Shown here: in pieces, positions 13,276 through 55,280 of the stretch
Position numbering within the stretch: position 1 is the stretch's first letter
Layout of the letters: each line of letters begins with the position of its first letter
Source of the DNA: Octopus vulgaris
Lineage: Eukaryota
DNA length: 64,000 nt
Assembly (NCBI GenBank): GCA_951406725.2
Contig: OX597825.1
Coordinates: forward strand, 74,710,001 to 74,774,000
Reading direction: 5' to 3'
The notes under the pieces: model-generated
Told to the model about the DNA's origin: nothing
Databases searched by the model: none
The model's input: the letters and a program-made list of their open reading frames with translations, nothing else
Translations under genes and position numbers: made by a program

Positions 13276-13660
13276 GGGTGAAAGCACTCCGTCAGTTACG
13301 ACGACGAGGGTTCCAGTTGATCCGAATCAACGGAACAGCCTCCTCGTGAAATTAACGTGTAAGTGGCTGAGCACTCCACAGACACGTGTACCCTTAACGT
13401 AGTTCTCGGGGATATTCAGCGTGACACAGAGAGTGACAAGGCCGGCCCTTTGAAATACAGGTACAACAGAAACAGGAAGTAAGAGTGAGAGAAAGTTGTG
13501 GTGAAAGAGTACAGCAGGGATCACCACCATCCCCTGTCGGAGCCTCGTGGAGCTTTAGGTGTTTTCGCTCAATAAACACTCACAACGCCCGGTCTGGGAA
13601 TCGAAACCACGATCCTATGACCGCGAGTCCGCTGCCCTAACCACTGGGCCATTGCGCCTC
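13276..13660 (-). mobile_element. SINE family B (tRNA-Arg-like head; probably an octopus OR-type SINE)
   Basis: gaggcgcaatggcccagtggttagggcagcggactcgcggtc...ggtttcgattcccag; TSD aa(t/c)ggatgatcagt at 13262-13275 and 13661-13674. Confidence 0.92.
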
Positions 13661-14037
13661 AACGGATGATCAGTAGTGTACATTTGAAGGTCGTAAGTGT
13701 ACATTGGATGGTCGTAAGTGTATATTGGATAGCCGTAAGCATACATCTTTATACCACGCATATGCAGCCTTCTTTGAGAAGTGAAATGTATGAGACGTGT
13801 TTCATCATCAAGTGGGCAACACTATTAAGAAAATTGAAGATTAATTTTTCGTTGGTAAGCCATTCAGAAAAATCCGCAGTACGCAGTTTGTCCGAGACTG
13901 ATTTACTATAACAGTGAATCCTGATATAATTTGAACCTCCCATATATTCGTCCACGTAATTTTCCTTGACCAATGAGAATCGGTCTAATTAGTGGGCTGT
14001 GGACATAGCTTCACTTACTATTTATTTCCTGAGAAGT

Positions 14038-14423
14038 GGAGGCGCAATGGCCCAGTGGTTAGGGCAGCGGACTCGCGGTTATAGGTTCGCGGTTTCGATT
14101 CCCAGACCGGGCATTGTGAGTGTTTATTGAGCGAAAACACCTAAAGCTCCACGAGGCTCCGGCAGGGGATGATGGTGATCCCTGCTGTACTCTTTCACCA
14201 CAACTTTCTCTCACTCTTACTTCCTGTTTCTGTTGTACCTGTATTTCAAAGGGCCGGCCTTGTCACTCTCTGTGTCACGCTGAATATCCCCGAGAACTAC
14301 GTTAAGGGTACACGTGTCTGTGGAGTGCTCAGTCACTTACACGTTAATTTCACGAGCAGGCTGTTCCGTTGATTCGGATCAACCGGAACCCTCGTCGTCG
14401 TAACCGACGGAGTGCTTCCATTA
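14038..14423 (+). mobile_element. SINE family B, full length
   Basis: Near-identical inverted copy of 13276-13660; TSD cctgagaagt at 14028-14037 and 14424-14433. Confidence 0.92.
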
Positions 14424-27425: not shown

Positions 27426-27846
27426 GGTGGCGAGCTGGCAGAGTTGTTAGCACGCCGGGCGAAATGCTTAGCGGTATTTCGTCTGCTGCTACGTTCTGAG
27501 TTCAAATTCCGCCGAGGTCGACTTTGCCTTTTATCCTTTCGGGGTCGATTAAATAAGTAGCAGTTACGCACTGGGGTCGATGTAATCGACTTAATCCGTT
27601 TGTCTGTCCTTGTTTGTTCCCTCTATGTTTAGCCCCTTGTGGGTAATAACGAAATAGAAATAGGTATTTCGTCTGCTGCTACGTTCTGAGTTCAAATTCC
27701 GCCGAGGTCAATTTTGCCTTTTATCCTTTCGGGGTCGATTAAATAAGTAGCAGTTACGCACTGGGGTCGATGTAATCGACTTAATCCGTTTGTCTGTCCT
27801 TATTTGTTCTTTCTGTGTTTAGCCCCTTGTGGGTAGTAAAGAAATA
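27426..27846 (+). mobile_element. SINE family A with tandem duplication of its 3' ~185 bp
   Basis: Full copy 27426-27660 followed by a headless copy 27663-27846 sharing diagnostic variants (aagtagcagtt, tgctgctacg). Confidence 0.9.
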
Positions 27847-28246
27847 AGAAATAAATTTTATATTATTTACATTGTTTCTCAAGGAAATTAGTATTCTCTA
27901 GAATTCAGTTCCTTGTGATTGACCACTGTAATTCGTTGACCGGAACTGTGGACCCAGTCAGCGAATTAAAGTGAGTGTGTACGGTCATACGTACATTTCT
28001 CTGTTGTGAAAACAAAGATGTATACAGTATATTTTGGGTTTGTTAAATGCAAATGCGCTGTAGCAAAATATTATTTTAGATTATGTCTTCGATTTCGTTC
28101 CGTAGTAAATATTGTGCAGAGCGCTTGCTATTTTCATGATTCTTTCAATACTTTCAATACTTTCAACAGACAAAAACAAAAAGAAATCAACTAGTATTTT
28201 CTCAAAGACAATTGTATATGGTCGCAGTCATATTGGCATTTCCAGT

Positions 28247-43488: not shown

Positions 43489-44041
43489 TTGGGTTGTCCG
43501 GAAAGTTCGTGCCGATTTATAGTATCTTACCTTTCGACTTACTTTTAGAACATGGTTGAGTCCATAAAAAAGGATTTGACTACACCTCCTTTTAGAGTAC
43601 AGTTTAAGCTAACTTTTCGTGGAAGAAGGTTTATGTTCCTATAACCTGTGTTAATTCTGTAACCCTTCAAATTGGAAGGTAAAGTTCATTTTTGGCACTT
43701 GATACTTTGCTAACCAGACAAAAATTGCTGCAGCTCGGCTGGGATGTGTTACCCTACCCTTCATATTGTGCCTAAGGATTTCCACTTATTCAGGCCTCTG
43801 CAGAATAGTCTTAATGGTAAAAATTTCAATTCCTTGGATGACGTAAAAAGATACCTTGATGAATTCTTTGCCATGAAACCACCTCAGTTCTGGGAAGCGC
43901 GTATTTTCAAGTTAAAGGAAAGATGAAGACACATTGTGCAACAAAATGGTTCATATTTGGTTGATTAAAAATATAATGGCAAGTATTTATTGACTTTTTT
44001 CTTTCCTTTAAAAATCGGCACGAACTTTCCGGACAACCCAA
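43489..44041 (+). mobile_element. Internally deleted mariner element
   Basis: Perfect 30-bp TIRs ttgggttgtccggaaagttcgtgccgattt with TA TSD; transposase C-terminus KLLQLGWDVLP...DFHLFRPLQNSLNGKNFNSLDDVKRYLDEFFAMKPPQFWEARIFKLKER. Confidence 0.95.
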
Positions 44042-44274
44042 TACTTTTCATTAAAATGGAGTACTGAGCGTTTCAGTTCTTCCTATGGATCTAGATTCAT
44101 ACAAAATAGATTTCATTTACCCTCTGACTCAATCAACTTTTCCTTTCATCCGTTCACGGTCGATGAGTTCCAGTTGAGCACTGGGGGGGGGGGGCGATGT
44201 AATCTACTTGCCCCTCCACCGAAATTGCTGGCATTGCGCCAAAATTTGAAACTATATTATATTTTTTATATTAT

Positions 44275-44789
44275 ACTAGCAGTATCGCCCGGCGTTGCTC
44301 GGGTTTGTAAGGGAAATAACTATATAAACATTTTTAGAGAGTTACTTCCTTTATAGATGCCAATTCGGGCTTTCTTAGCCATTTCTGTTTTGGTGTCTTC
44401 AAGCCATGAAGTCGTTGTTCTAAAAGAACGCTGGTCTCCTTGACAACGCATTACGACGTTGATTTCCTTAAACTCCCTTCCCCACAGCTTCACGAGGGAG
44501 GGAAGAAGGGGGAGAAGCAAACAGGTGCAGGTGTGACCATGGACGCCAACTCCGCCGCCATCGACACACGAAAAATTATGCATTAAAATGGAATAAAAAT
44601 TGATGTTAAATTATTTTTAAAATCGTAGACTCATCGTAGACGCGCGCTAATACCCAGACTGGCTCGATATGAATCACGACTATAAGATACCCGAATTTGG
44701 TTAAAGTGCACCGCAAAATGTGGGAGTAGTTAGGAATCTAAATCGAAGGGGACAGACACTCACAAAACTACAGTTTTATATAGAGAGAT
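44275..44789 (+). mobile_element. Non-autonomous Helentron/HINE-like element, copy 3
   Basis: actagcagtatcgcccggcgttgctcgggtttgtaagggaaataactata (shared with copy 1) ... gacagacactcacaaaactacagttttatatagagagat. Confidence 0.7.
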
Positions 44790-45189
44790 ATATGGAAGAC
44801 CAAAATATCATAAAATATCAAACTGAGTTTTCGTTTCGTTTTGTTTGTGGGATTTTTGTTGGGTATTTTTTGTTGTTATTTTTCAGGATTTCCGTTTGAA
44901 TAGAAATGGATCAACATTTTCGTTTATTATCATTATATATTTAATCTTAATTTTTATTAGAATGAGCTGAAAGAGGTTATCGCTTATAATTAATTAACAA
45001 AATATATAAAAGCTGCATAAAGTACTTGAAGTGACGCCTATTGATCGATTTTAGAATATCAACTAAATATTAATTAAAATGAATGTGACAAAAATAACTA
45101 AATTCACTTGTTTTTTTCGTTGTTTACTTCAACTACTTCATTTTGGATACTAACTTCCGTTTGCTTAGTGATGTTGTTGTTTATTTGTG

Positions 45190-45348
45190 GTTCTAGTGAT
45201 TGTGGTGATAGTGGTGGTGGTAGTGGCGGTGTTGGTGGTGCTTATGCTTGTACCGTTGGCATTGGTGCTGGAGCTGGTAGTGGTGGTAGTGGTGGTGGTG
45301 GTGGTGGAGGTGGAGGTGGTGATGGTGGTGGTGGAGATGCTGGAGTTG

Positions 45349-45380
<32 letters not shown>

Positions 45381-45513
45381 GGTGGTGGTGGTGATAGTGG
45401 TGGTGGCGGTGGTGGTGGTGCTTATGCTTGTACCGTTGGCATTGGTGCTGGAGCTGGTGATGGTGGTGGTGGAGGTGCTGGAGCTGGTGGTGGTGGTGGA
45501 GGTGCTGGAGTTG

Positions 45514-45545
<32 letters not shown>

Positions 45546-45937
45546 GGTGGTGGTGGTGGTGGTGGTGGTGGTGGTGATGGTGGTTGTTTTGGTGGTGTTG
45601 GTGCTGGTGCTGGTGCTGGAGGTGCTGGTGATGGTGATGGTGATGGTGGTGGTGAAGGTGATGGTGATGGTGATGGTGAAGGTGCTGGTGATGGTGGTGG
45701 TGGTGGTGGTGGTGGTGGTGATGATGGTGTTCGTGGTGGTGGTGGTGGTGCTGGTGCTGGAGGTGCTGGAGGTGCTGGTGCTGGTGCTGGTGTTGATGCT
45801 AGAGGTGCTGGTGATGGTGGTGGTGGTGGTGTCAGTTGTGAAGGTAGAGGTAGTCGTGGTGGTGCCTGTGGTGCTAGTGGCGGGTACTGGTGGTGTTAGT
45901 GGTGTTGTTGTTGTTGTTGGTGGTGGTGGTGGGGGGG
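45190..45937. repeat. (GGT)n/(GCT)n/(GTT)n low-complexity tract with an internal ~180-bp tandem duplication
   Basis: ggtgcttatgcttgtaccgttggcattggtgctggagctggt occurs at ~45237 and ~45417. Confidence 0.9.
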
Positions 45938-46249
45938 ATCATATTTGATTCAATTTTTTTCTGTAACTTTTTTTGTTTTCTTTTTCTGCTAATAATATTT
46001 GAAAAATTAAATTGGTTTGCGGCAGTTTATGATTTTCTATTTGAACATACCTTTTGTACGTTTTGCTTCTTGGTCTTTTTTTTTTTTCAATTATGTGTGT
46101 TTTATGACGCATATTCATATGCGCATGTGCATGCGGTAGGGGTTTTGAAGAGTATGTTCATCTTTGTGTCTTTGCATTTGCGTGTTCATGTGTGCACCTG
46201 TATATGTTCGCATACGAGGTGTTTATACAGGTTCTCCTCTGTACGTATA

Positions 46250-46278
46250 CCCACATACACACACACACACACATATAA

Positions 46279-46327
<49 letters not shown>

Positions 46328-46443
46328 CATAATATAAATGCAGACATATACACATATATGTATAAACGTATATACAGAAATATATGTAAATACAAACAAT
46401 ATATATATATACATATATATATGAATTATATATATGTATATGC

Positions 46444-46481
<38 letters not shown>

Positions 46482-46630
46482 ACTTACATACATTTATGTA
46501 TATATATACATATTCATACACATATACAGACATATATAATCATATACACACAACATACATATATATGTATGTACATATATAACCATATGCACATCCACAT
46601 ATATAACCATATGCATATACATATATATAC

Positions 46631-46675
<45 letters not shown>

Positions 46676-46705
46676 TGTATGTGTGTAAATATATATATGT
46701 ATATT
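46250..46705. repeat. Compound (CA)/(TG)/(TA) microsatellite
   Basis: Direct inspection. Confidence 0.95.
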
Positions 46706-47249
46706 TGTGAGTATGTGTATTTATACTTGTTTGGTGATGCGAGTAAAACGTGACTGTAGAAATTTTCTCTTCTCTTAAACACTAAATGAAGAGTGTTATT
46801 ACCAGGGAGTTAATCAAACTTGAAGGAGAAGCAAAAATAATTTTGGGGGTTTTTTGTTTGTTTGTTTGATTGATTCTGTTTTTTTTTGTTTGTTTGTTTG
46901 TTTGTTTTTTTTTTGATAAGGTAAGCGATGAGAAAGAGAAAAGCAGAAGTAGAAAGAGAAAAAGAAAGATAGAAAAGGGAAAGGAAAAGGAAAAGCAATC
47001 AAAATGAAAAACGATTGTAAAAAAAAGAGAAAAGAAAAGAAGGAAACAAGGAATTAGGTCAGGTTAAGACATTATAGAGTATTCATTAAGAAAACAAAGA
47101 ATACTAATTAAAAACATTATCTTAGAGAAGATTACTTAAATTATCAAACCAGATGAAATATTTTCAAGAAAAAAATTCAGTTTCAATATTATTACAATTA
47201 CGATTATAAATACGTATTTTATTATATTATTTTTTATCATAGTTATTAT

Positions 47250-47255
47250 TGCGAC

Positions 47256-47299
<44 letters not shown>

Positions 47300-47563
47300 T
47301 TGCGACTAGTAGTAGTAGTGGTAGTAATAGTAGTAGTAGTAGTATCACCAGCAGCAGTAATAGTATTAGTAATAGTAGTAGTAGTAGTATCACCAGCAGC
47401 AGTAGTAGTGGCAACAGCGGTTATTGTAGCATTGGTGGTGGTAGTAGTAGTGGTGGTGGTGGTGGTGGTGGTGATGCTAGTGGTGGTGTGTAGTGGTGGC
47501 GGTGGTGGTTAAGATATTAACGAGAGTAGCAGTAGTCGTAGTAGTTGTTGTGGTTGCTGTAGC

Positions 47564-47608
<45 letters not shown>

Positions 47609-47622
47609 TGTTGTTGTTGTTG
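47250..47622. repeat. Compound (AGT)/(AGC)/(GGT) trinucleotide block, copy 2
   Basis: Paralogous to 42232-42560. Confidence 0.9.
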
Positions 47623-47996
47623 CTGTGTCTCACAAAAGAGTAATACTTCAACCATTTATTCTGCCTCTTTAATACAAACCAAAACTCAGTAAGACTGCGT
47701 ACTTGTCGTCTTAACAAAAGATTTTAAAACTTTGTATTACTCTTCACTGTATCCGAATATATTTTTCGATATTATGCATAAGAACCAGTTATGATTTCGC
47801 AGTCTTCTCAACCGTTAATTTCTTAAAAGGAAATTTTTTTTTTAACAAAAGCTTTTTTACTGGAGGGAACATTTACAAATACCATTTCTAATGGAGTCTG
47901 CCTTCGAGGATTTCTGAGAATGGTATAAGAAATATATGTGTCGCGCGCCCCGTGTAAGTGTGTGTACAAACACGTATATGTTCGTATGTATGTATG

Positions 47997-48049
<53 letters not shown>

Positions 48050-48168
48050 CACACACATATATATGCTTTATATATACATAGATGTATATATATATATATG
48101 CGTATATATACATTATATATATATACATTTTGTATATATGTATATATGTATTATATATACATAGGTAT

Positions 48169-48214
<46 letters not shown>

Positions 48215-48582
48215 TATATATATGCGTGTGTGAGTGCGCGCGTGTGTGTGTGTATGTGTTATTAAAAATATATATATTGAACCAGGGGATTAGAAAAGTT
48301 TTTGGATTTATTTATTCATTATTACACATGTTCCATCTGCTAAAAAGAAATTGTACATGTAGGATATATCTTAATGCTTCTCCTACATGTACAAATGTGT
48401 GGCTCTTATTAGTCACTGAAACATATCTAATAATGAATAAACGATAATATATATAATTAAGAGAAATAATCTCTATTAAGCAATTCAATAATGAAAGACA
48501 TTATCCATATTATATAGAAAAAATTTAAATATGCTATATAAATATTATTCAAAAAATCAATAAATTAAATAAACATTAAATT

Positions 48583-48680
48583 GACTACGCGCGTTTCGTG
48601 ACTATATCTTTAAATCGATAATAATAAAATCGATGCTATTAAAATTAATTCGATTTAAAAATATAGCCACTCTTCAAGTC
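48583..48680 (-). ncRNA. Type I hammerhead ribozyme motif (C3U variant), left arm
   Basis: Minus strand gac-TTGAAGA-gtggctatatttttaaatcga...tcgatttaaagatatagtcac-GAAA-cgcgcg-TA-gtc. Confidence 0.7.
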
Positions 48681-48815
48681 TAAAATAATAAAATACATGT
48701 TCTTCAATAAGATAAGTTGTGAATTCTTTTTTCATTTATATTGTTAAATTCTATTCGATTATTTATTGTTTAATCTGTTTATTTGTTAGATACATACATT
48801 TATTTTATTAGTTTA

Positions 48816-48913
48816 GACCTGAAGAGTGACTATATTTTTAAATCGAATTAATTTTGATAGTATCGATTTTATTACTATCGATTTAAAGATATAGTCACGA
48901 AACGCGCGTAGTC
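48816..48913 (+). ncRNA. Type I hammerhead ribozyme motif, right arm
   Basis: gac-CTGAAGA-gtgactatatttttaaatcga...tcgatttaaagatatagtcac-GAAA-cgcgcg-TA-gtc; 21-bp stem II with one G-U, palindromic stem III, GUA site (cleavage predicted after 48910). Confidence 0.82.
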
Positions 48914-49125
48914 ATTTTGATGGTTATTTAATTTATTGCTTTTTAAATAATATCTATTATAGTATATTTAATTTTTTTCTATTTAATATGGATAATGTCT
49001 TTCACTACTGAATTGCTTAATAATGGTTACTTCTCATAATTATATACATATATTATGTATCGTGAAATTTGATTTAGAATTGCTAAATTGAATTTTCCCT
49101 GTAAGTTTGGAATTATATTCCTTAC

Positions 49126-49191
<66 letters not shown>

Positions 49192-49357
49192 CTAATAGGC
49201 GGAGTAAACCGGAAATTTGTAAACTTGTCCCAAATGCTTGCAACAACGTAAACTCCATCAAAGAAACCAAATCAGTGATGTTAAAGTGAGTGACATATTA
49301 AGTCTGCACCTTCAAGATAAACCCATACACTCACACACCTCTTACATACAAACACGC

Positions 49358-49403
<46 letters not shown>

Positions 49404-49537
49404 ACAAGCACACAAGCATAAGTGTGTGTATGCACATGCATGCGCATATGCACGTTTGGATTGACGACAATTATTGACTTCACTAGTATCAACTTGCATT
49501 AATTTTAATTCTAACTTTATTTTCTGTATTTACTATA

Positions 49538-49774
49538 CAGTAATCCCTCGCCATATCGCAGTTCATCTATCACGGTTCACCTTTCGCGGTTTATTATTTC
49601 AGCTTACGTCGACTCCTCCGTGGTGATGTTTTGCATTTATAATAAAATAAATATATACAAATTATAAAAATAGTAAAAGAAAATATACAGTACAATATTA
49701 TTTCTACTTCGCAGATTTTCACCTATCGCTGGAGATTTTGGAACGTAACACCCGCGATAGTTGAAGAATTACTG
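49538..49774. mobile_element. pogo/Tigger-like MITE
   Basis: TA|cagtaatccctcgccatatcgc ... gcgatagttgaagaattactg|TA. Confidence 0.8.
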
Positions 49775-52122
49775 TATTCCCACTCTTTCATTGCTCTTAT
49801 TGTGTCAAGTACCACGTCTAAATGAGAATTCTAGAATCTCATTTTCTGTTTTATAATATCAGTAGTCAATACAGTATCCTAAAGCTAAGCTATAAAAAAT
49901 GTGACAATTTTATGAAAAATACCCAGCATTAACAGACAAATGTCTTTGCATTAAATTATTACAACTAATTCCCTTCCAGTTTCTATACGCATTTTAAATG
50001 CTTGACATGTTATATTTTCAAGTACGTACACTAATTTTGTTCTAGCCCTGTTAGCTTTCGTACAAGTCAGTTAATGTTTTGTTTATAGATTTCTATAACG
50101 GAAGAAGCATTTTCGGTTTAGCTCAGAACGTCCAGAGTATTTGTCACTGAGGGAACAGATAAAGGTTGAAACAGTGTCTGGTGATTCACCGGTGTTATAG
50201 GTAAAGCCTTAAGTGTTTAATACATAAGTGTATTTGAGAAGTTTCTCTAAGACATAATATGATATCTAGGGCTGTTCCATGTTTGTAAACACATAAATAT
50301 TATGCATACCGGTTTCGTAAATATTTACATATTCTGATAGCGGCGAAATGGGAGAATCATCAAAGAATCGGTCAAAATATTTTGCAACATTCAGTTACGG
50401 CTCATTAACTTCTAGGATGCAATCTCACCGAAGTCAACATTGCCTTTCATCATTTAAGGGTCGATAAAATTAAGTATCATTCAAGGTCTTAGATCGACAA
50501 AAACATCGATAGTTCCCCTCCCTCAAAATTTATAGCTTTGTATGTATACTAGAAGCATCATCCGCTCATTCTTCCGAAGGTTGCAGGTAGACGGAATGGT
50601 AGTGTGTCATATTAAACGCGGTGTAGCTATATCATTTATATTCTTATTTCATATTCAATAGAGATCGACTTTTCTTTTCTTTATTTTTTTTTAGCTTCCC
50701 ACTATCAGTAAACTAAGCACTATTTATGTACTAGTTTATTCAATGAACATTTTTTCTGTGACATTTTCTCAATGCTATAACTCATTGTTTGTTTTATTCC
50801 TTTTACTTTCCTCCATCTCACTATTTCTTTAATTGGCCCTTGCATCCTTAAATCCATTCTAATTAGAACGTGTTACCAGCTATTAAATCCGATGCTTAAC
50901 TGAACGTCCTCGTTAGCAGTTTCTGTCTGATTTACACTAAGAACAGATATGTGGGCGAATCTCATGTCGAGATAATCGAAGCAGAAACTTCACTAGAAAT
51001 TATTGAAGAATGTAATTCATCTTAAGTAACCTTTAATATATCATGATTATGTCCGCAGGGGACATAAACGTGACATTTTTATAAACATTTCTTTTTACAA
51101 AATAAAAAGAAAAATCTAGCTTTTTTATACAATTCAGCTTCATATGACAAAATATATATAATTTGTATGAATATAAATATCATCACTGCTAATTATTTTA
51201 ATTGGGGGTCTTGAAACTGAAAAAGGAAAAGCCATAATTATTAAGTAAAACTCAATTGAGAAATAATTATACTTTCTAGTATAGTTAATCCGTTTTTGTC
51301 CTAGTTTTAAAAAGTCTAATAACTCGTGGATACTTTATCAGTGGAGATCTTTCCTCAAATTACTTCGTCACCATGATGTGAACCGTTGACAAGCCAGACC
51401 TCGGATGACTTCTTTTCTCCAAACTACAAATCCATAAGAAAATCTGAAGACAGTCTTATAAGGCAATACAGCACTCGTTATTTTACAGTGTTGCCACTAC
51501 TTACAGCACCGAGCTGGCATCATAGCACCTGAAATTACTTCGTCACCATGATATGCATAGATAACAACAGAGCCACTGCTCTTCTCCAAACTTTGTGACA
51601 CGTTCGGTGGAAGAAAGAATACAGAACAAACTTATAAAAATTGATTTTTCTTAAATCTTAAAATATATTTCAAATCTCAGCTTCATCCATGCCAAATAAA
51701 TAAATTCACACTATTTCTCAGTGAAATTTAAGTCGGAAGATCATTAATGAACCAGCGATGGATGGGCTCAGGAAATTCCATACGTTGTAGAAACAAATAG
51801 CTACCTAAACAATTAAATCTATAAACTAACCATTAAATTTTGATTGAGATAATTAGAAGAAGCTTCTCTGAGTTTATATGTATGTGTGTGTGTGTATGAA
51901 TATGCGTATATATGTACATAACATACACACATACACACACACGCACATATATGTGTGTGTATTTATGTATGTATATCCTTTAAGTTCGTTTACCTAAACG
52001 TCTTGAATATGAACATAAATACTACTATTTCATTATGCCAGCTACAGCCTAATGATGTCAGCAGACAATACCAGCTTTTGGGGTCGCACCGAGCTGTGCC
52101 GATATAACGTGGGATAAATATA

Positions 52123-52357
52123 CTTTTCTACTCTAAGCACAAGGCTCGAAAGTTTTGGAGAGGGGGCCAGTCGATTAGATTGCCCCCAGTACGCAACTGG
52201 TACTTAGTTTATCGATCCAGAAAGGATGAAAGGAAAGTCGACCTCGGTTGAATTTGAACTTAGAACGTAAATACAGACGAAATACCTATTTCTTTACTAC
52301 CCACAAGGGCTGAACACAGAGAGGACAAGCATGGACAGATAAACGGATTAAGTCGAT
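52123..52357 (-). mobile_element. Two abutting SINE family A fragments
   Basis: Core (aaggatgaaaggaaagtcgacctcgg) followed by a second tail (ttctttactacccacaagggc). Confidence 0.8.
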
Positions 52358-52990
52358 TAATATATATTACATAATATAGTTCTGAGTCCATAATTTCTAA
52401 AATAATAGTTGGAACGTCCATGGTTGGAATGCCTTCGAGCATGAGTCTAGTCTAATCTTGTAGGCCTGGCTAAGAGCTTCACAATAAAAGCGACAATGAA
52501 GTTACAATAGAATTTTATATATTCTGAAAGACCATCTTTTATCTGTTTATGGGAATTATTTACTTTGCAACATATAAATCAGATTAATAAGATTTATCAT
52601 ATTAATGGAGACGAGAACTGGATGATCGGTGAGGTGGCGTGAACCAGAATTGAATTATCTAATAAGCTAATTAACTCTCATCAGAATTCTAATATCTTAA
52701 CCAACAGATTGATCAGCATATTAATGAAGCCATTAGGGTAGAATTCTTACTTTGGTGATTATTGCTAAGAAATTACATAAATCTGAGAATACTCGCCAAC
52801 TAAAGACAAATCAATTATAAATTGTTGATGCTTTTCTCGGCGGAACAAGATATCAGTGTGCGGTACCTTGATACGTCAGTGTAGATTGAGGTCATTCAGT
52901 GCATTGGTTATGGATAGTAATAGTAACATGTACACACCTTTAACACATTTGTTGTTGCCTTCAGCTATACTGACAGCATTCCACGCTTCC

Positions 52991-53109
<119 letters not shown>

Positions 53110-53121
53110 TATATAAGTATG

Positions 53122-53188
<67 letters not shown>

Positions 53189-53319
53189 TCAAAATTAAAA
53201 AATAAAAGGTTAGTCCTCTACTGCAATTTCGAAGTTGGGAACCAAAAGTGGAGCCCATTTTCTCTTCAGAAGATATCTGTGCCTGTATATATGTGTGTGT
53301 GGAGGGGTGTATATGCTGT

Positions 53320-53635
53320 TAAGATCCCCTTCGGTCATTACTGAGCATGGGATTGCACCTAGAAAGTTACTCTCCCAGGCACAAGTCTGGGCAAGGTTGT
53401 TTTTATGAAAGACTGGCAGTCACCCATGCATACCAGCCTCTCCTTTCCACGCCACCAGTGTTATCCAAGGGAAAGGCAAAGGGGTCGATACAACTTGGCA
53501 CCTGTGATTTCGCAACTCATTTCTACAGCTTAGAGAACTGCAGCAACGTAAAATAAATAACACAACACGCAGCCCGGTCCGGGAATCGAACTCACAACCT
53601 CACGACCGTAAGCTCGACGCTCTAACCACTGAGCC

Positions 53636-53638
<3 letters not shown>
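53320..53638 (-). mobile_element. SINE family C, followed by tandem re-duplications of its head end (53681-53700, 53803-53874)
   Basis: Homology to 8489-8815; tctaaccactgagccatgt(ATAT)n repeated three times. Confidence 0.88.
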
Positions 53639-53672
<34 letters not shown>

Positions 53673-53696
53673 AGGAAAAATTCTAACCACTGAGCC

Positions 53697-53739
<43 letters not shown>

Positions 53740-53871
53740 AGGAAAAATTCTATAAGAAAGGAACTCTAATCTCTCTTTTATATTTTGATAAGCATAACAA
53801 ATGCGCAGCCCGGTCCGGGAATCGAACTCACAACCTCACGACCGTAAGCTCGACGCTCTAACCACTGAGCC

Positions 53872-53928
<57 letters not shown>

Positions 53929-54649
53929 GATGGATGGATGGATGGATGGATTAAAATATTTTGACTCAAATTCGTTGTTACTCCGAGTTTCAAGCGTGAT
54001 GCTAATCATCAGCCATTTTGAATTTGAATGGGAGATGATTGTTATTATCGTAAAGCAGGCTGCGATTAGTCGAGGAAGGTCACGCAGTGTCTTTATTTGA
54101 TGTTGGTATATCAGCGACAACAGTAACTTGGAAAATACCGCATGCTGAACAGGAAATTGACCGCGTGATGGACAGGAAATCGGTCGTGTTGTTGGAGGGG
54201 TAGAAGGAAGGAGCTGTATGTGCAAGCATACTGTTGTATATGTGAGTGTATGACGCGCCTGTATTGTTTTGCTTGCATGACTGTATTGATGCAAGCGTGC
54301 GCATCTGTACGTGGGCGCGCACACATATACACACACACATATATGACCGAACATGCGCTTGCACACGCGTATACATACACATGCATACACATGGACGCAC
54401 ACACACACATGCGTATTCATTTTTAGGTACATATGTATATGTGCGTGCATGTACGAATGCATATTAGTGTTCGCGCGCACACATGCGCGTGCATGCATAA
54501 GTATACTTGCGCATGACAAGCGTTGGAGATTGGTAATTGACGGTCCTGCTCATGGGGTTGGTTGGTGACGGTAGCCTTCGTGCAGGCGGTGCAGGGCAGC
54601 AGCTGGTACTAGGGTGGTATATCCGCGTTGTCGACGGTCAGAGGATCGA

Positions 54650-55280
54650 AATTTATCAGAAGAGCATACTTCTGGTGACAGTAATACGATAAATCGTATT
54701 TCTTGTTGATGGATACTGCGGGTTGTTAGAGGATATGCAGTTTTTCACAGAGGCACCGGGGTAATATGGTGGCGCTCTGTCCACTTGATGCTAGGTGTTT
54801 CGTCTCGGAGATCGCGGAGTCTCCAGAGAAAACGTGACAGGGAAGTAGAGTTCTCTCTGTCCCTGGATCTGAACGAGTGCATATACTGGGAGTATATTCT
54901 CTTGAAGTCATTAGCTGTCATACCAGTATAGTATCTAGTAATGTCATTGGATGGCGTAAGGATGGCTCTGTATACTACTGCCCTTCAGAGGCATGATCCT
55001 TCTAGAGAAAACATGGTGGGGTTTCGACAGCTGCAGGTTGGGATTGGGGTGGTGCGGGTGTATTTTTACGTCTGTTGATGCGTATGATGTTAGATGCCAT
55101 GTTGTCTAAGCAGGAGTGACTCATCTTAACAGTATGAGGGTTGAAGAGTTTGTAATATTTGTGTCTTCTGTGGAAGTGTTTCTTAATTAACGACAGGAAG
55201 CCCCTAGCTACGTTGGTCGAAACTTCTAGGTTGACAGGGGGGTTGTAGCATATAATTCTCCTTTTCCTAATCTTTCCTAG
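54650..55280 (-). mobile_element. Penelope-like element ORF relic (RT-EN linker plus GIY-YIG endonuclease)
   Basis: RKRRIICYNPPVNLEVSTNVARGFLSLIKKHFHRRHKYYKLFNPHTVKMSHSCLDNM; LEGSCL*RAVVYRA...RYYTGMTANDFKRIYSQYMHSF...STSLSRFLWRL; CLCEKLHI; INKKYDLSYYCHQKY. These are canonical Penelope motifs, with stops and frameshifts. Confidence 0.9.

Follow-up and report, generated by a model that had tools for sequence, protein, structure and literature searches.

Among the systems described so far, the Hydra clade of Penelope-like elements (PLEs) is the closest to the locus considered here, a foldback with one hammerhead ribozyme motif on each strand that lies in a 64-kb stretch of Octopus vulgaris DNA (the window, meaning the whole stretch analysed). 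As set out by Craig et al. 2021 (PMC8557442), Hydra-clade elements are generally short (<3 kb), a tendency rather than a definition, and their signatures are a DKG motif modified to DKT, a CxCx5C linker, and CxxC and CxH motifs around conserved E and N. The octopus family resembles members of the clade such as Hydra-1_Obim and Penelope-13_HM in its single ORF with RT and C-terminal endonuclease, in the DKT, CxCx5C, CxxC and CxH motifs, in the (TA)n target, in a hammerhead near the 3' end and in a tail at one end. For Penelope-13_HM, supplements S1 and S2 of that paper contain a 5'-truncated inverted copy at the 5' end, with the same hammerhead on both strands. Hydra-1_Obim, as presented in the same source, is a different family: its hammerhead has a 7-bp stem II and another sequence, and its protein differs widely by eye. 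At the RWK position the reading is IKWK, and a long 3' region and Asn-rich linker bring copies of the octopus family to ~3.2 kb or more. Its stem II spans 21 bp, in contrast to the 3-7 bp of the 26 Hydra-clade rows of supplement S2, which upholds the earlier note on this DNA in calling this helix unusually long.

At the level of the ribozyme, the minimal type I hammerheads that Cervera and De la Pena 2014 (PMC4209133) describe in metazoan PLEs share with the octopus motif a U-rich 5' flank, a 3-bp stem I, the CUGANGA box, the G10.1-C11.1 pair, GAAA, a palindromic stem III and an AU-rich 3' flank. Compared with the forms described in that paper, the octopus motif has a 73-nt stem II domain, and its A9 and G10.1 are not separated by an unpaired base. 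The same authors report pairs of minimal hammerheads on opposite strands, 100-700 bp apart, which they ascribe to truncated PLEs. At the level of the insertion, the Penelope copies that Arkhipova et al. 2013 (PMC3846280) describe in Adineta vaga comprise head-to-head inverted pseudo-LTRs (pLTRs), one of them shorter and one tailed, as at the present locus; unlike in that description, neither a target-site duplication nor a junction palindrome was identified at the octopus foldback, and the tail measures ~65 instead of 31 nt. Non-LTR retrozymes, short non-coding PLE-derived sequences with a type I hammerhead, are also alike, but the preprint on them (bioRxiv 10.64898/2026.07.22.740005) requires direct repeats in tandem that hold two or more consecutive hammerheads, and the foldback, an inverted pair with staggered 5' ends, falls outside that definition.

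The foldback is most readily explained, with a probability of about 0.9, as a truncated, inverted insertion of a Hydra-clade PLE family not matched to a published one, that is, as two 5'-truncated, decayed pLTR ends standing head to head beside a TA microsatellite. Twin opposite-strand hammerheads are already published for PLEs, and the longer-than-reported stem II is a minor variant. With opposite-strand pairs from truncated PLEs in print, the locus is of little importance in itself, and two side results, the long stem II and the tail confined to one arm, have modest value. Since a stem II of at least 21 bp lies outside the published search descriptor, hammerhead counts in animal genomes may be low; the tail on a single arm, often the shorter one, provides genomic evidence on how Penelope inversions form.

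Geometry of the foldback and its two hammerhead motifs

Local alignment of the two arms (48444-48700 on the minus strand against 48796-49053 on the plus strand) gives 232 identical columns out of 259, the differences being 16 transitions, 8 transversions and 3 gap columns, with a score of 377 against a maximum of 51 in 200 shuffles. This confirms the inverted repeat of ~620 bp with scattered substitutions, many of them transitions, that the earlier note had described. The interval that the note leaves between its arms, 48701-48791, is not a spacer but element sequence, namely the 5' part of the right copy, which also extends past the arm to ~49108. The "spacer" being family sequence, the locus is made of a 408-nt copy with a tail that abuts a 257-nt inverted copy without one (Table 1). 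The left copy starts ~21 nt before the hammerhead core and ends at the inner (short) 3' end of the family, and the right copy starts ~145 nt before the core and includes the tail. This tail is homologous to the stretch between the hammerhead and the ORF start in an intact element of a sister family. A TA run begins at ~49110, a short one also borders the left end of the foldback, and the microsatellite is the likely insertion target. The joint between opposite strands (48701/48796) is present in one contig of the public run X2, possibly derived from the source sample, so an assembly error is not an obvious explanation of the foldback. No other pieces of the element family occur in the 64-kb window. 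A small hairpin with 13-bp arms around 16 nt (48364-48393), without family match, lies 50 nt to the left of the foldback.

Table 1. Features of the foldback and its borders, in window positions.
Feature	Position	Strand	Description
Left copy	48444..48700	-	Assigned to a Hydra-clade Penelope-like element: its pLTR/3' end, truncated on the 5' side
Right copy	48701..49108	+	Assigned as 5'-truncated pLTR/3' end of the same element as the left copy
"Spacer"	48701..48795	+	Element sequence confined to the longer copy; loop of the predicted hairpin
Type I hammerhead, left copy	48583..48680	-	Descriptor scan; predicted cleavage after A48586
Type I hammerhead, right copy	48816..48913	+	Descriptor scan; predicted cleavage after A48910
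Long stem II	48826..48898	+	21 pairs, one of them G-U; the 31-nt loop region contains a weak inner hairpin
8-nt palindrome ACGCGCGU	48902..48909	+	Stem III: 2 bp in the monomer, 8 bp (intermolecular) in the predicted dimer
Tail	49046..49108	+	Stretch of ~65 nt that separates the family's two 3' ends; right arm only
(TA)30 microsatellite	49129..49189	.	Directly past the tail

Both hammerhead motifs, one per strand, were recovered where the earlier note had placed them, the left core carrying U3. Each motif comprises a 3-bp stem I (GAC/GUC), the box CUGAAGA (right) or UUGAAGA (left), stem II and GAAA-CGCGCG-UA. The type I core (CUGANGA / GAAA / UH) with its three stems is complete in the right arm, where the cleavage triplet is GUA; the left arm has U3 through a C3-to-U change at 48677, where 41 of 43 subfamily-A copies have C, the majority base. 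In the anole PLE hammerhead, C3-G8 is required for activity, according to PMC11167929, and by analogy U3 would impair the ribozyme of the left copy. Among hits with at least 3 stem II pairs, a descriptor scan of the whole window gave the two motifs and otherwise just two weak matches with 3-4 pairs. In folding predictions, stem II has a mean pair probability of 0.99 in both arms and a free energy of -27.3 kcal/mol in the right copy, and the self-duplex of the palindrome ACGCGCGU reaches -13.3 kcal/mol. No Rfam hammerhead match was obtained at E<=1 within 44000-54000, as expected from the 73-nt stem II; Rfam searches of two loci of related families gave no hammerhead match either, an uninformative result given the limits of the models. 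Scans for bacterial promoters and terminators and for tRNAs were empty or irrelevant.

The element family and the decay of its copies

With one arm as query, a search of the genome (2.8 Gb in 227 contigs) produced 1126 first-look candidates, a figure that does not represent copy numbers, and the 40 that were scored gave 47 matches with 83-90% identity over the full arm. Copies of the family have staggered 5' ends and fixed 3' ends followed by (TA)n or (TAT)n. There are two such 3' ends, ~65 nt apart (42 short and 39 long out of 84), and the TA or TAT runs found after them in nearly all copies inspected fit the (TA)n preference of the Hydra clade. Longer copies continue into disrupted frames in which RT (YRDD, MGAPDS) and endonuclease motifs can be recognised. 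When 30 loci (L032-L061) were selected through the ORF region, 26 of them matched the right copy downstream and on the same strand. The RT and GIY-YIG endonuclease ORF lies outside the window, in these longer copies and, intact, in the sister family. It was assigned by its motifs and by BLASTP matches to unnamed proteins (P0001-P0003); Pfam and PDB sequence searches with the ORF pieces and the intact ORFs returned nothing significant.

The sister family has intact frames of 838-841 aa and is ~79% identical in the RT piece (841-aa ORF). Its intact ORF displays DKT, YRDD, CxCx5C, YIG, CxxC and CxH, and the Hydra-clade motifs (DKT; CxCx5C; CxxC, CxH) are also present in frames of the foldback's own family. 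At the RWK position the sister ORF reads RIKWK, as against RMRWK in Hydra-1_Obim, and the frames of the element follow by eye the Hydra alignment published in the supplement of PMC8557442; assignment to the clade consists of motifs and of this by-eye comparison with the published alignment, and not of a tree. Neither family is as short (<3 kb) as Hydra-clade elements tend to be, the foldback's own reaching ~3.2 kb or more and the sister family having a repeat period of 6.3 kb. In the latter, a pLTR-ORF-pLTR tandem carries same-strand hammerheads, one of them ~270 nt before the ORF. Because this hammerhead precedes the ORF and the stretch that follows it is homologous to the tail, the foldback arms can be recognised as pLTR sequence; in the foldback's family, no direct upstream hammerhead was found among 11 long loci. 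The connection that had been drawn to Penelope-like elements, their pseudo-LTRs and inverted pLTRs is in this way supported by the RT and endonuclease motifs and by the pLTR arrangement.

The sister family is young (L142-L148, L154-L156 and L161; for example L143:1907-4429) and possibly still active. It has tandem pLTRs, a 3.5-kb non-coding region with internal repeats, a hammerhead with a short stem II and the palindrome ACAATTGT, and foldbacks of up to 2364 bp at 99.9% identity (L142). Such near-identical foldbacks (up to 99.9%) constitute good material for the study of inversion junctions and could put the formation of Penelope inversions to a clean test.

Decay after insertion was assessed in 43 subfamily-A copies (of 56) that had not been chosen by core pattern. 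Changes affect 17 of 427 non-CpG core cells, compared with 339 of 5757 in the flank without diagnostic sites (p=0.11). When all flank sites are considered, subfamily-diagnostic ones included (461/6105), the difference has a Fisher p of 0.005 and a site-wise p of 0.097, and the lower core variability in this comparison (p=0.005) leaves room for weak constraint after insertion. The CpGs of the palindrome are changed in 45 of 247 cells, and core, palindrome and stem I are all intact in just 5 of 67 copies, the right arm of the foldback included. Inserted copies are read, from these substitution counts, as decaying about neutrally. Between the majority sequences of the three subfamilies, 1 of 25 columns of the core, stem I and stem III varies (N7), as opposed to 41 of 124 flank columns (p=0.003), and the maintenance of the core between subfamilies argues for selection on the ribozyme in source elements. 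The test put forward in the earlier note, a conserved core with compensatory changes among genomic copies, was split: it came out negative among inserted copies and positive between subfamilies, an outcome that points to selection in source elements and not at this locus.

Origin of the head-to-head arrangement

Across 70 sites chosen by similarity searches, which do not form a random sample, a head-to-head partner was present at 26 and a single orientation at 44 within the flanks taken, and two full-span motifs on opposite strands occurred at four. Inner ends are different at every site, and the arms vary in length. Of 18 sites (19 pairs, with one site entering twice), 16 carry the tail on a single arm (binomial p=0.0007 against 0.5). 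A second, independent set consisted of 43 loci from subfamilies B and C. An inverted partner was present at 14 of them, and the script called 11 of those one-tailed; on inspection by eye, the one-tail calls at L106 and L137 are doubtful, and L128 and L141, called tail-less, are one-tailed. Overall, 27 of 32 head-to-head sites have the tail on one arm and none has it on both. At ten of these 27 the tail is carried by the shorter copy, the longer one being tail-less (four in the first set and six in the second, two of the latter being only 25-36 nt long). Tails on the shorter copy make fold-back copying of one cDNA insufficient, and two priming events suffice, so that the one-arm-only tail favours two separate priming events. 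In vitro, the anole PLE protein is described in PMC11167929 as cutting and extending both strands, with two RT start sites that bound the tail; by analogy with this protein, the tail pattern suggests a model of two-ended priming.

According to such a model, the GIY-YIG endonuclease of the element would cut both strands in TA-rich DNA and each cut 3' end would prime reverse transcription on element RNA, one priming at the outer start site, which would yield the tail, and the other at the inner site. Both cDNAs would halt early and then be joined head to head. Each arm would possess a hammerhead only because the motif lies ~150-220 nt from the element end. In source elements, where the hammerhead is likely functional, it would cut as a dimer via the 8-nt palindrome, either in tandem pLTR-ORF-pLTR transcripts or in trans. 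The foldback itself is probably inert, an ordinary scar left over from a single insertion event. Its arms have three changes from the subfamily majority in common, but they are not mutually closest, 38 of 62 copies being equal or closer; across 13 pairs, the similarity of the arms is above the median in 10. As the two arms are not each other's closest copies, their simultaneous origin rests on the geometry, the three shared changes and the family pattern.

Self-priming, proposed by Arkhipova et al. 2013 (PMC3846280), would attribute the inversion to the same element, with a single cDNA, or an antisense template, folding back and being copied. This model, already stated in print, accommodates the direct abutment of the arms, the overlap at the junction ranging from -4 to 8 nt across 11 pairs that abut, and would take the extra 5' piece of the longer copy as the loop, the shorter arm of this window being wholly contained in the longer one. 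It is nonetheless an unlikely, if reasonable, alternative, since a tail on the shorter copy that is absent from the longer one, as at ten of the 27 one-tail sites, cannot arise by copying of the longer cDNA, and no site has the tail on both arms.

Of 32 copies truncated between -400 and -10, 12 end within one 23-nt interval (family position -159 to -137 from C3, picked after the data had been inspected). This hot spot, at which the right copy begins (48701), lies at the 3' side of a predicted weak hairpin and imperfect palindrome and could be an RT stall site. At L114 and L120, a short 3' end is followed by a TA run and then by the inverted tail of another PLE family, a pattern suggesting common TA targets or cross-family pairing.

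Predicted hairpin RNA, long stem II and the proposed switch

Read-through RNA from the foldback is predicted to form a hairpin with 240-246 inter-arm pairs and unbroken helices of 45-53 bp, which makes it a plausible candidate ADAR or Dicer substrate. A foldback acting as a co-opted or incidental source of double-stranded RNA, whose hairpin would be edited by ADAR or diced and silence the family with the ribozymes as mere passengers, would draw on these continuous helices and on the rotifer, in which Penelope copies yield small RNAs whose polarity switches across the inverted halves, as described in PMC3846280. Against it, the arms have diverged (17 and 6 private changes) with no sign of preserved pairing, and family copies show no editing footprint in the form of a sense-strand A>G excess (103/5509 A>G versus 180/8245 T>C), and this role is improbable, somewhat more so than self-priming. 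Among the contigs of four public runs (three of them guessed to be RNA) that match the right copy, none is at least 99% identical to it and 3 of 86 are 95-99% identical.

A further reading concerns stem II. All 21 pairs are kept in subfamily A and 20 of 21 in subfamily B, where a single C-G pair has become A-U and an A-C mismatch occurs; in subfamily C the 12 proximal pairs are kept and two of these are altered on both sides, a change that a 2-nt insertion could also explain. That the stem II of subfamily B is an inversion of that of A was considered and rejected, the loop orientation being identical. In an alignment of 36 hand-picked copies of 106, a covariation tool recorded two-sided change in 26 cells, yet in no more than 2 pairs, a number of pairs equalled or exceeded in 349 of 500 shuffles, and one covarying pair falls within stem II. 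The covariation of stem II is thin and would correspond essentially to one inherited change. The domain is labile in length, with 16 nt in the young sister family and 73-93 nt in the foldback's own, and it measures 85-86 nt and is GC-rich (-37 to -43 kcal/mol) in a family ~50% identical in RT. This distant Hydra-like family (L150:6813, L152:7128 and 1196, L157:6748) has the palindrome ACAGCTGT, and at L152 its motif is present on both strands as another twin-hammerhead foldback. A 53-nt stem II domain is listed for a spike-moss PLE in supplement S2 of PMC8557442. The descriptor of the 2014 search, as given in the supplement of PMC4209133, allowed no more than 3-7 bp for stem II and 3-10 nt for loop 2, and a 21-bp form could not have been found with it; in the literature texts searched for long stem II or octopus hammerheads, the 21-bp form is not reported.

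A selected class of long-stem-II hammerheads in Octopus Hydra-clade elements, with foldbacks that supply double-stranded RNA, is conceivable from the maintenance of the 21-bp stem through three subfamilies and from the unrelated 85-nt GC-rich stem of the distant family. It is a doubtful proposal, slightly below the double-stranded RNA role in likelihood, and the nearest sister family, with its 16-nt domain, departs from it. If it were true, the long helix would be a selected docking site for the element protein or, alternatively, for a dsRNA-binding or editing enzyme, gating cleavage in either case, and the many foldback copies would amount to family-wide double-stranded RNA.

The functional bidirectional module of the earlier note, a selected switch in which the RNA either folds as a hairpin or self-cleaves, fares worse. 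The geometry described for it holds, the right motif is intact, and the 21-bp stem II of each arm might trap part of the antisense arm during transcription. However, the hairpin is predicted at -297 and -304 kcal/mol in the two directions, versus -103 and -100 if the ribozyme forms and the remainder folds locally, so that the two states are unbalanced by ~200 kcal/mol in energies that represent equilibrium predictions. The read-through RNA contains one sense motif and its antisense copy, the antisense arm being transcribed first, and no second sense copy exists within the window. The foldback motif has the dimer-dependent architecture described for PLE hammerheads, for which PMC4209133 and the review PMC6765202 report no monomer activity and low dimer activity. 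In accordance with that architecture, the predicted pairing probability of stem III in the monomer is 0.02-0.03, and two sense copies pair via the palindrome, the predicted energy of the active dimer fold exceeding the two-strand minimum by ~2 kcal/mol. Whichever strand is transcribed, the single sense ribozyme of a read-through RNA would lie within a predicted 240-bp hairpin that would silence it. The module is further contradicted by U3 in the left core, by inserted copies without significant extra core conservation, by arms that are no more alike than unrelated copies, by arm lengths that vary freely across sites and by the rarity of two full-span motifs (just 4 of 70 sites). With the hairpin favoured by ~200 kcal/mol, no sense partner, C3U in the left copy and roughly neutral decay of inserted copies, a hairpin-versus-ribozyme switch is unlikely, and one maintained by selection is highly improbable.

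Least credible of all, and rejected, is a MITE or foldback DNA transposon whose long terminal inverted repeats bear a hammerhead-like string by chance, for although an AT-rich inverted repeat of ~620 bp adjoining TA dinucleotides has that appearance, 44 of 70 sites hold a single orientation, the inner ends are all different and copies reach the RT/endonuclease ORF.

Elsewhere in the window, an inverted repeat with 385-nt arms (13279-13663 and 14036-14420), 97% complementary and 372 nt apart, has ends that look like the head of a tRNA-derived SINE, and it probably represents two opposed SINE copies. At 27473-27853 there is a tandem pair of a 190-nt interspersed repeat with 95% identity. With the sister ORF, tblastn gave a weak match on the minus strand at 54808-55038 (32% over 84 aa, E=3e-5) that falls in the endonuclease region and marks what is, by this resemblance, a remnant of another PLE.
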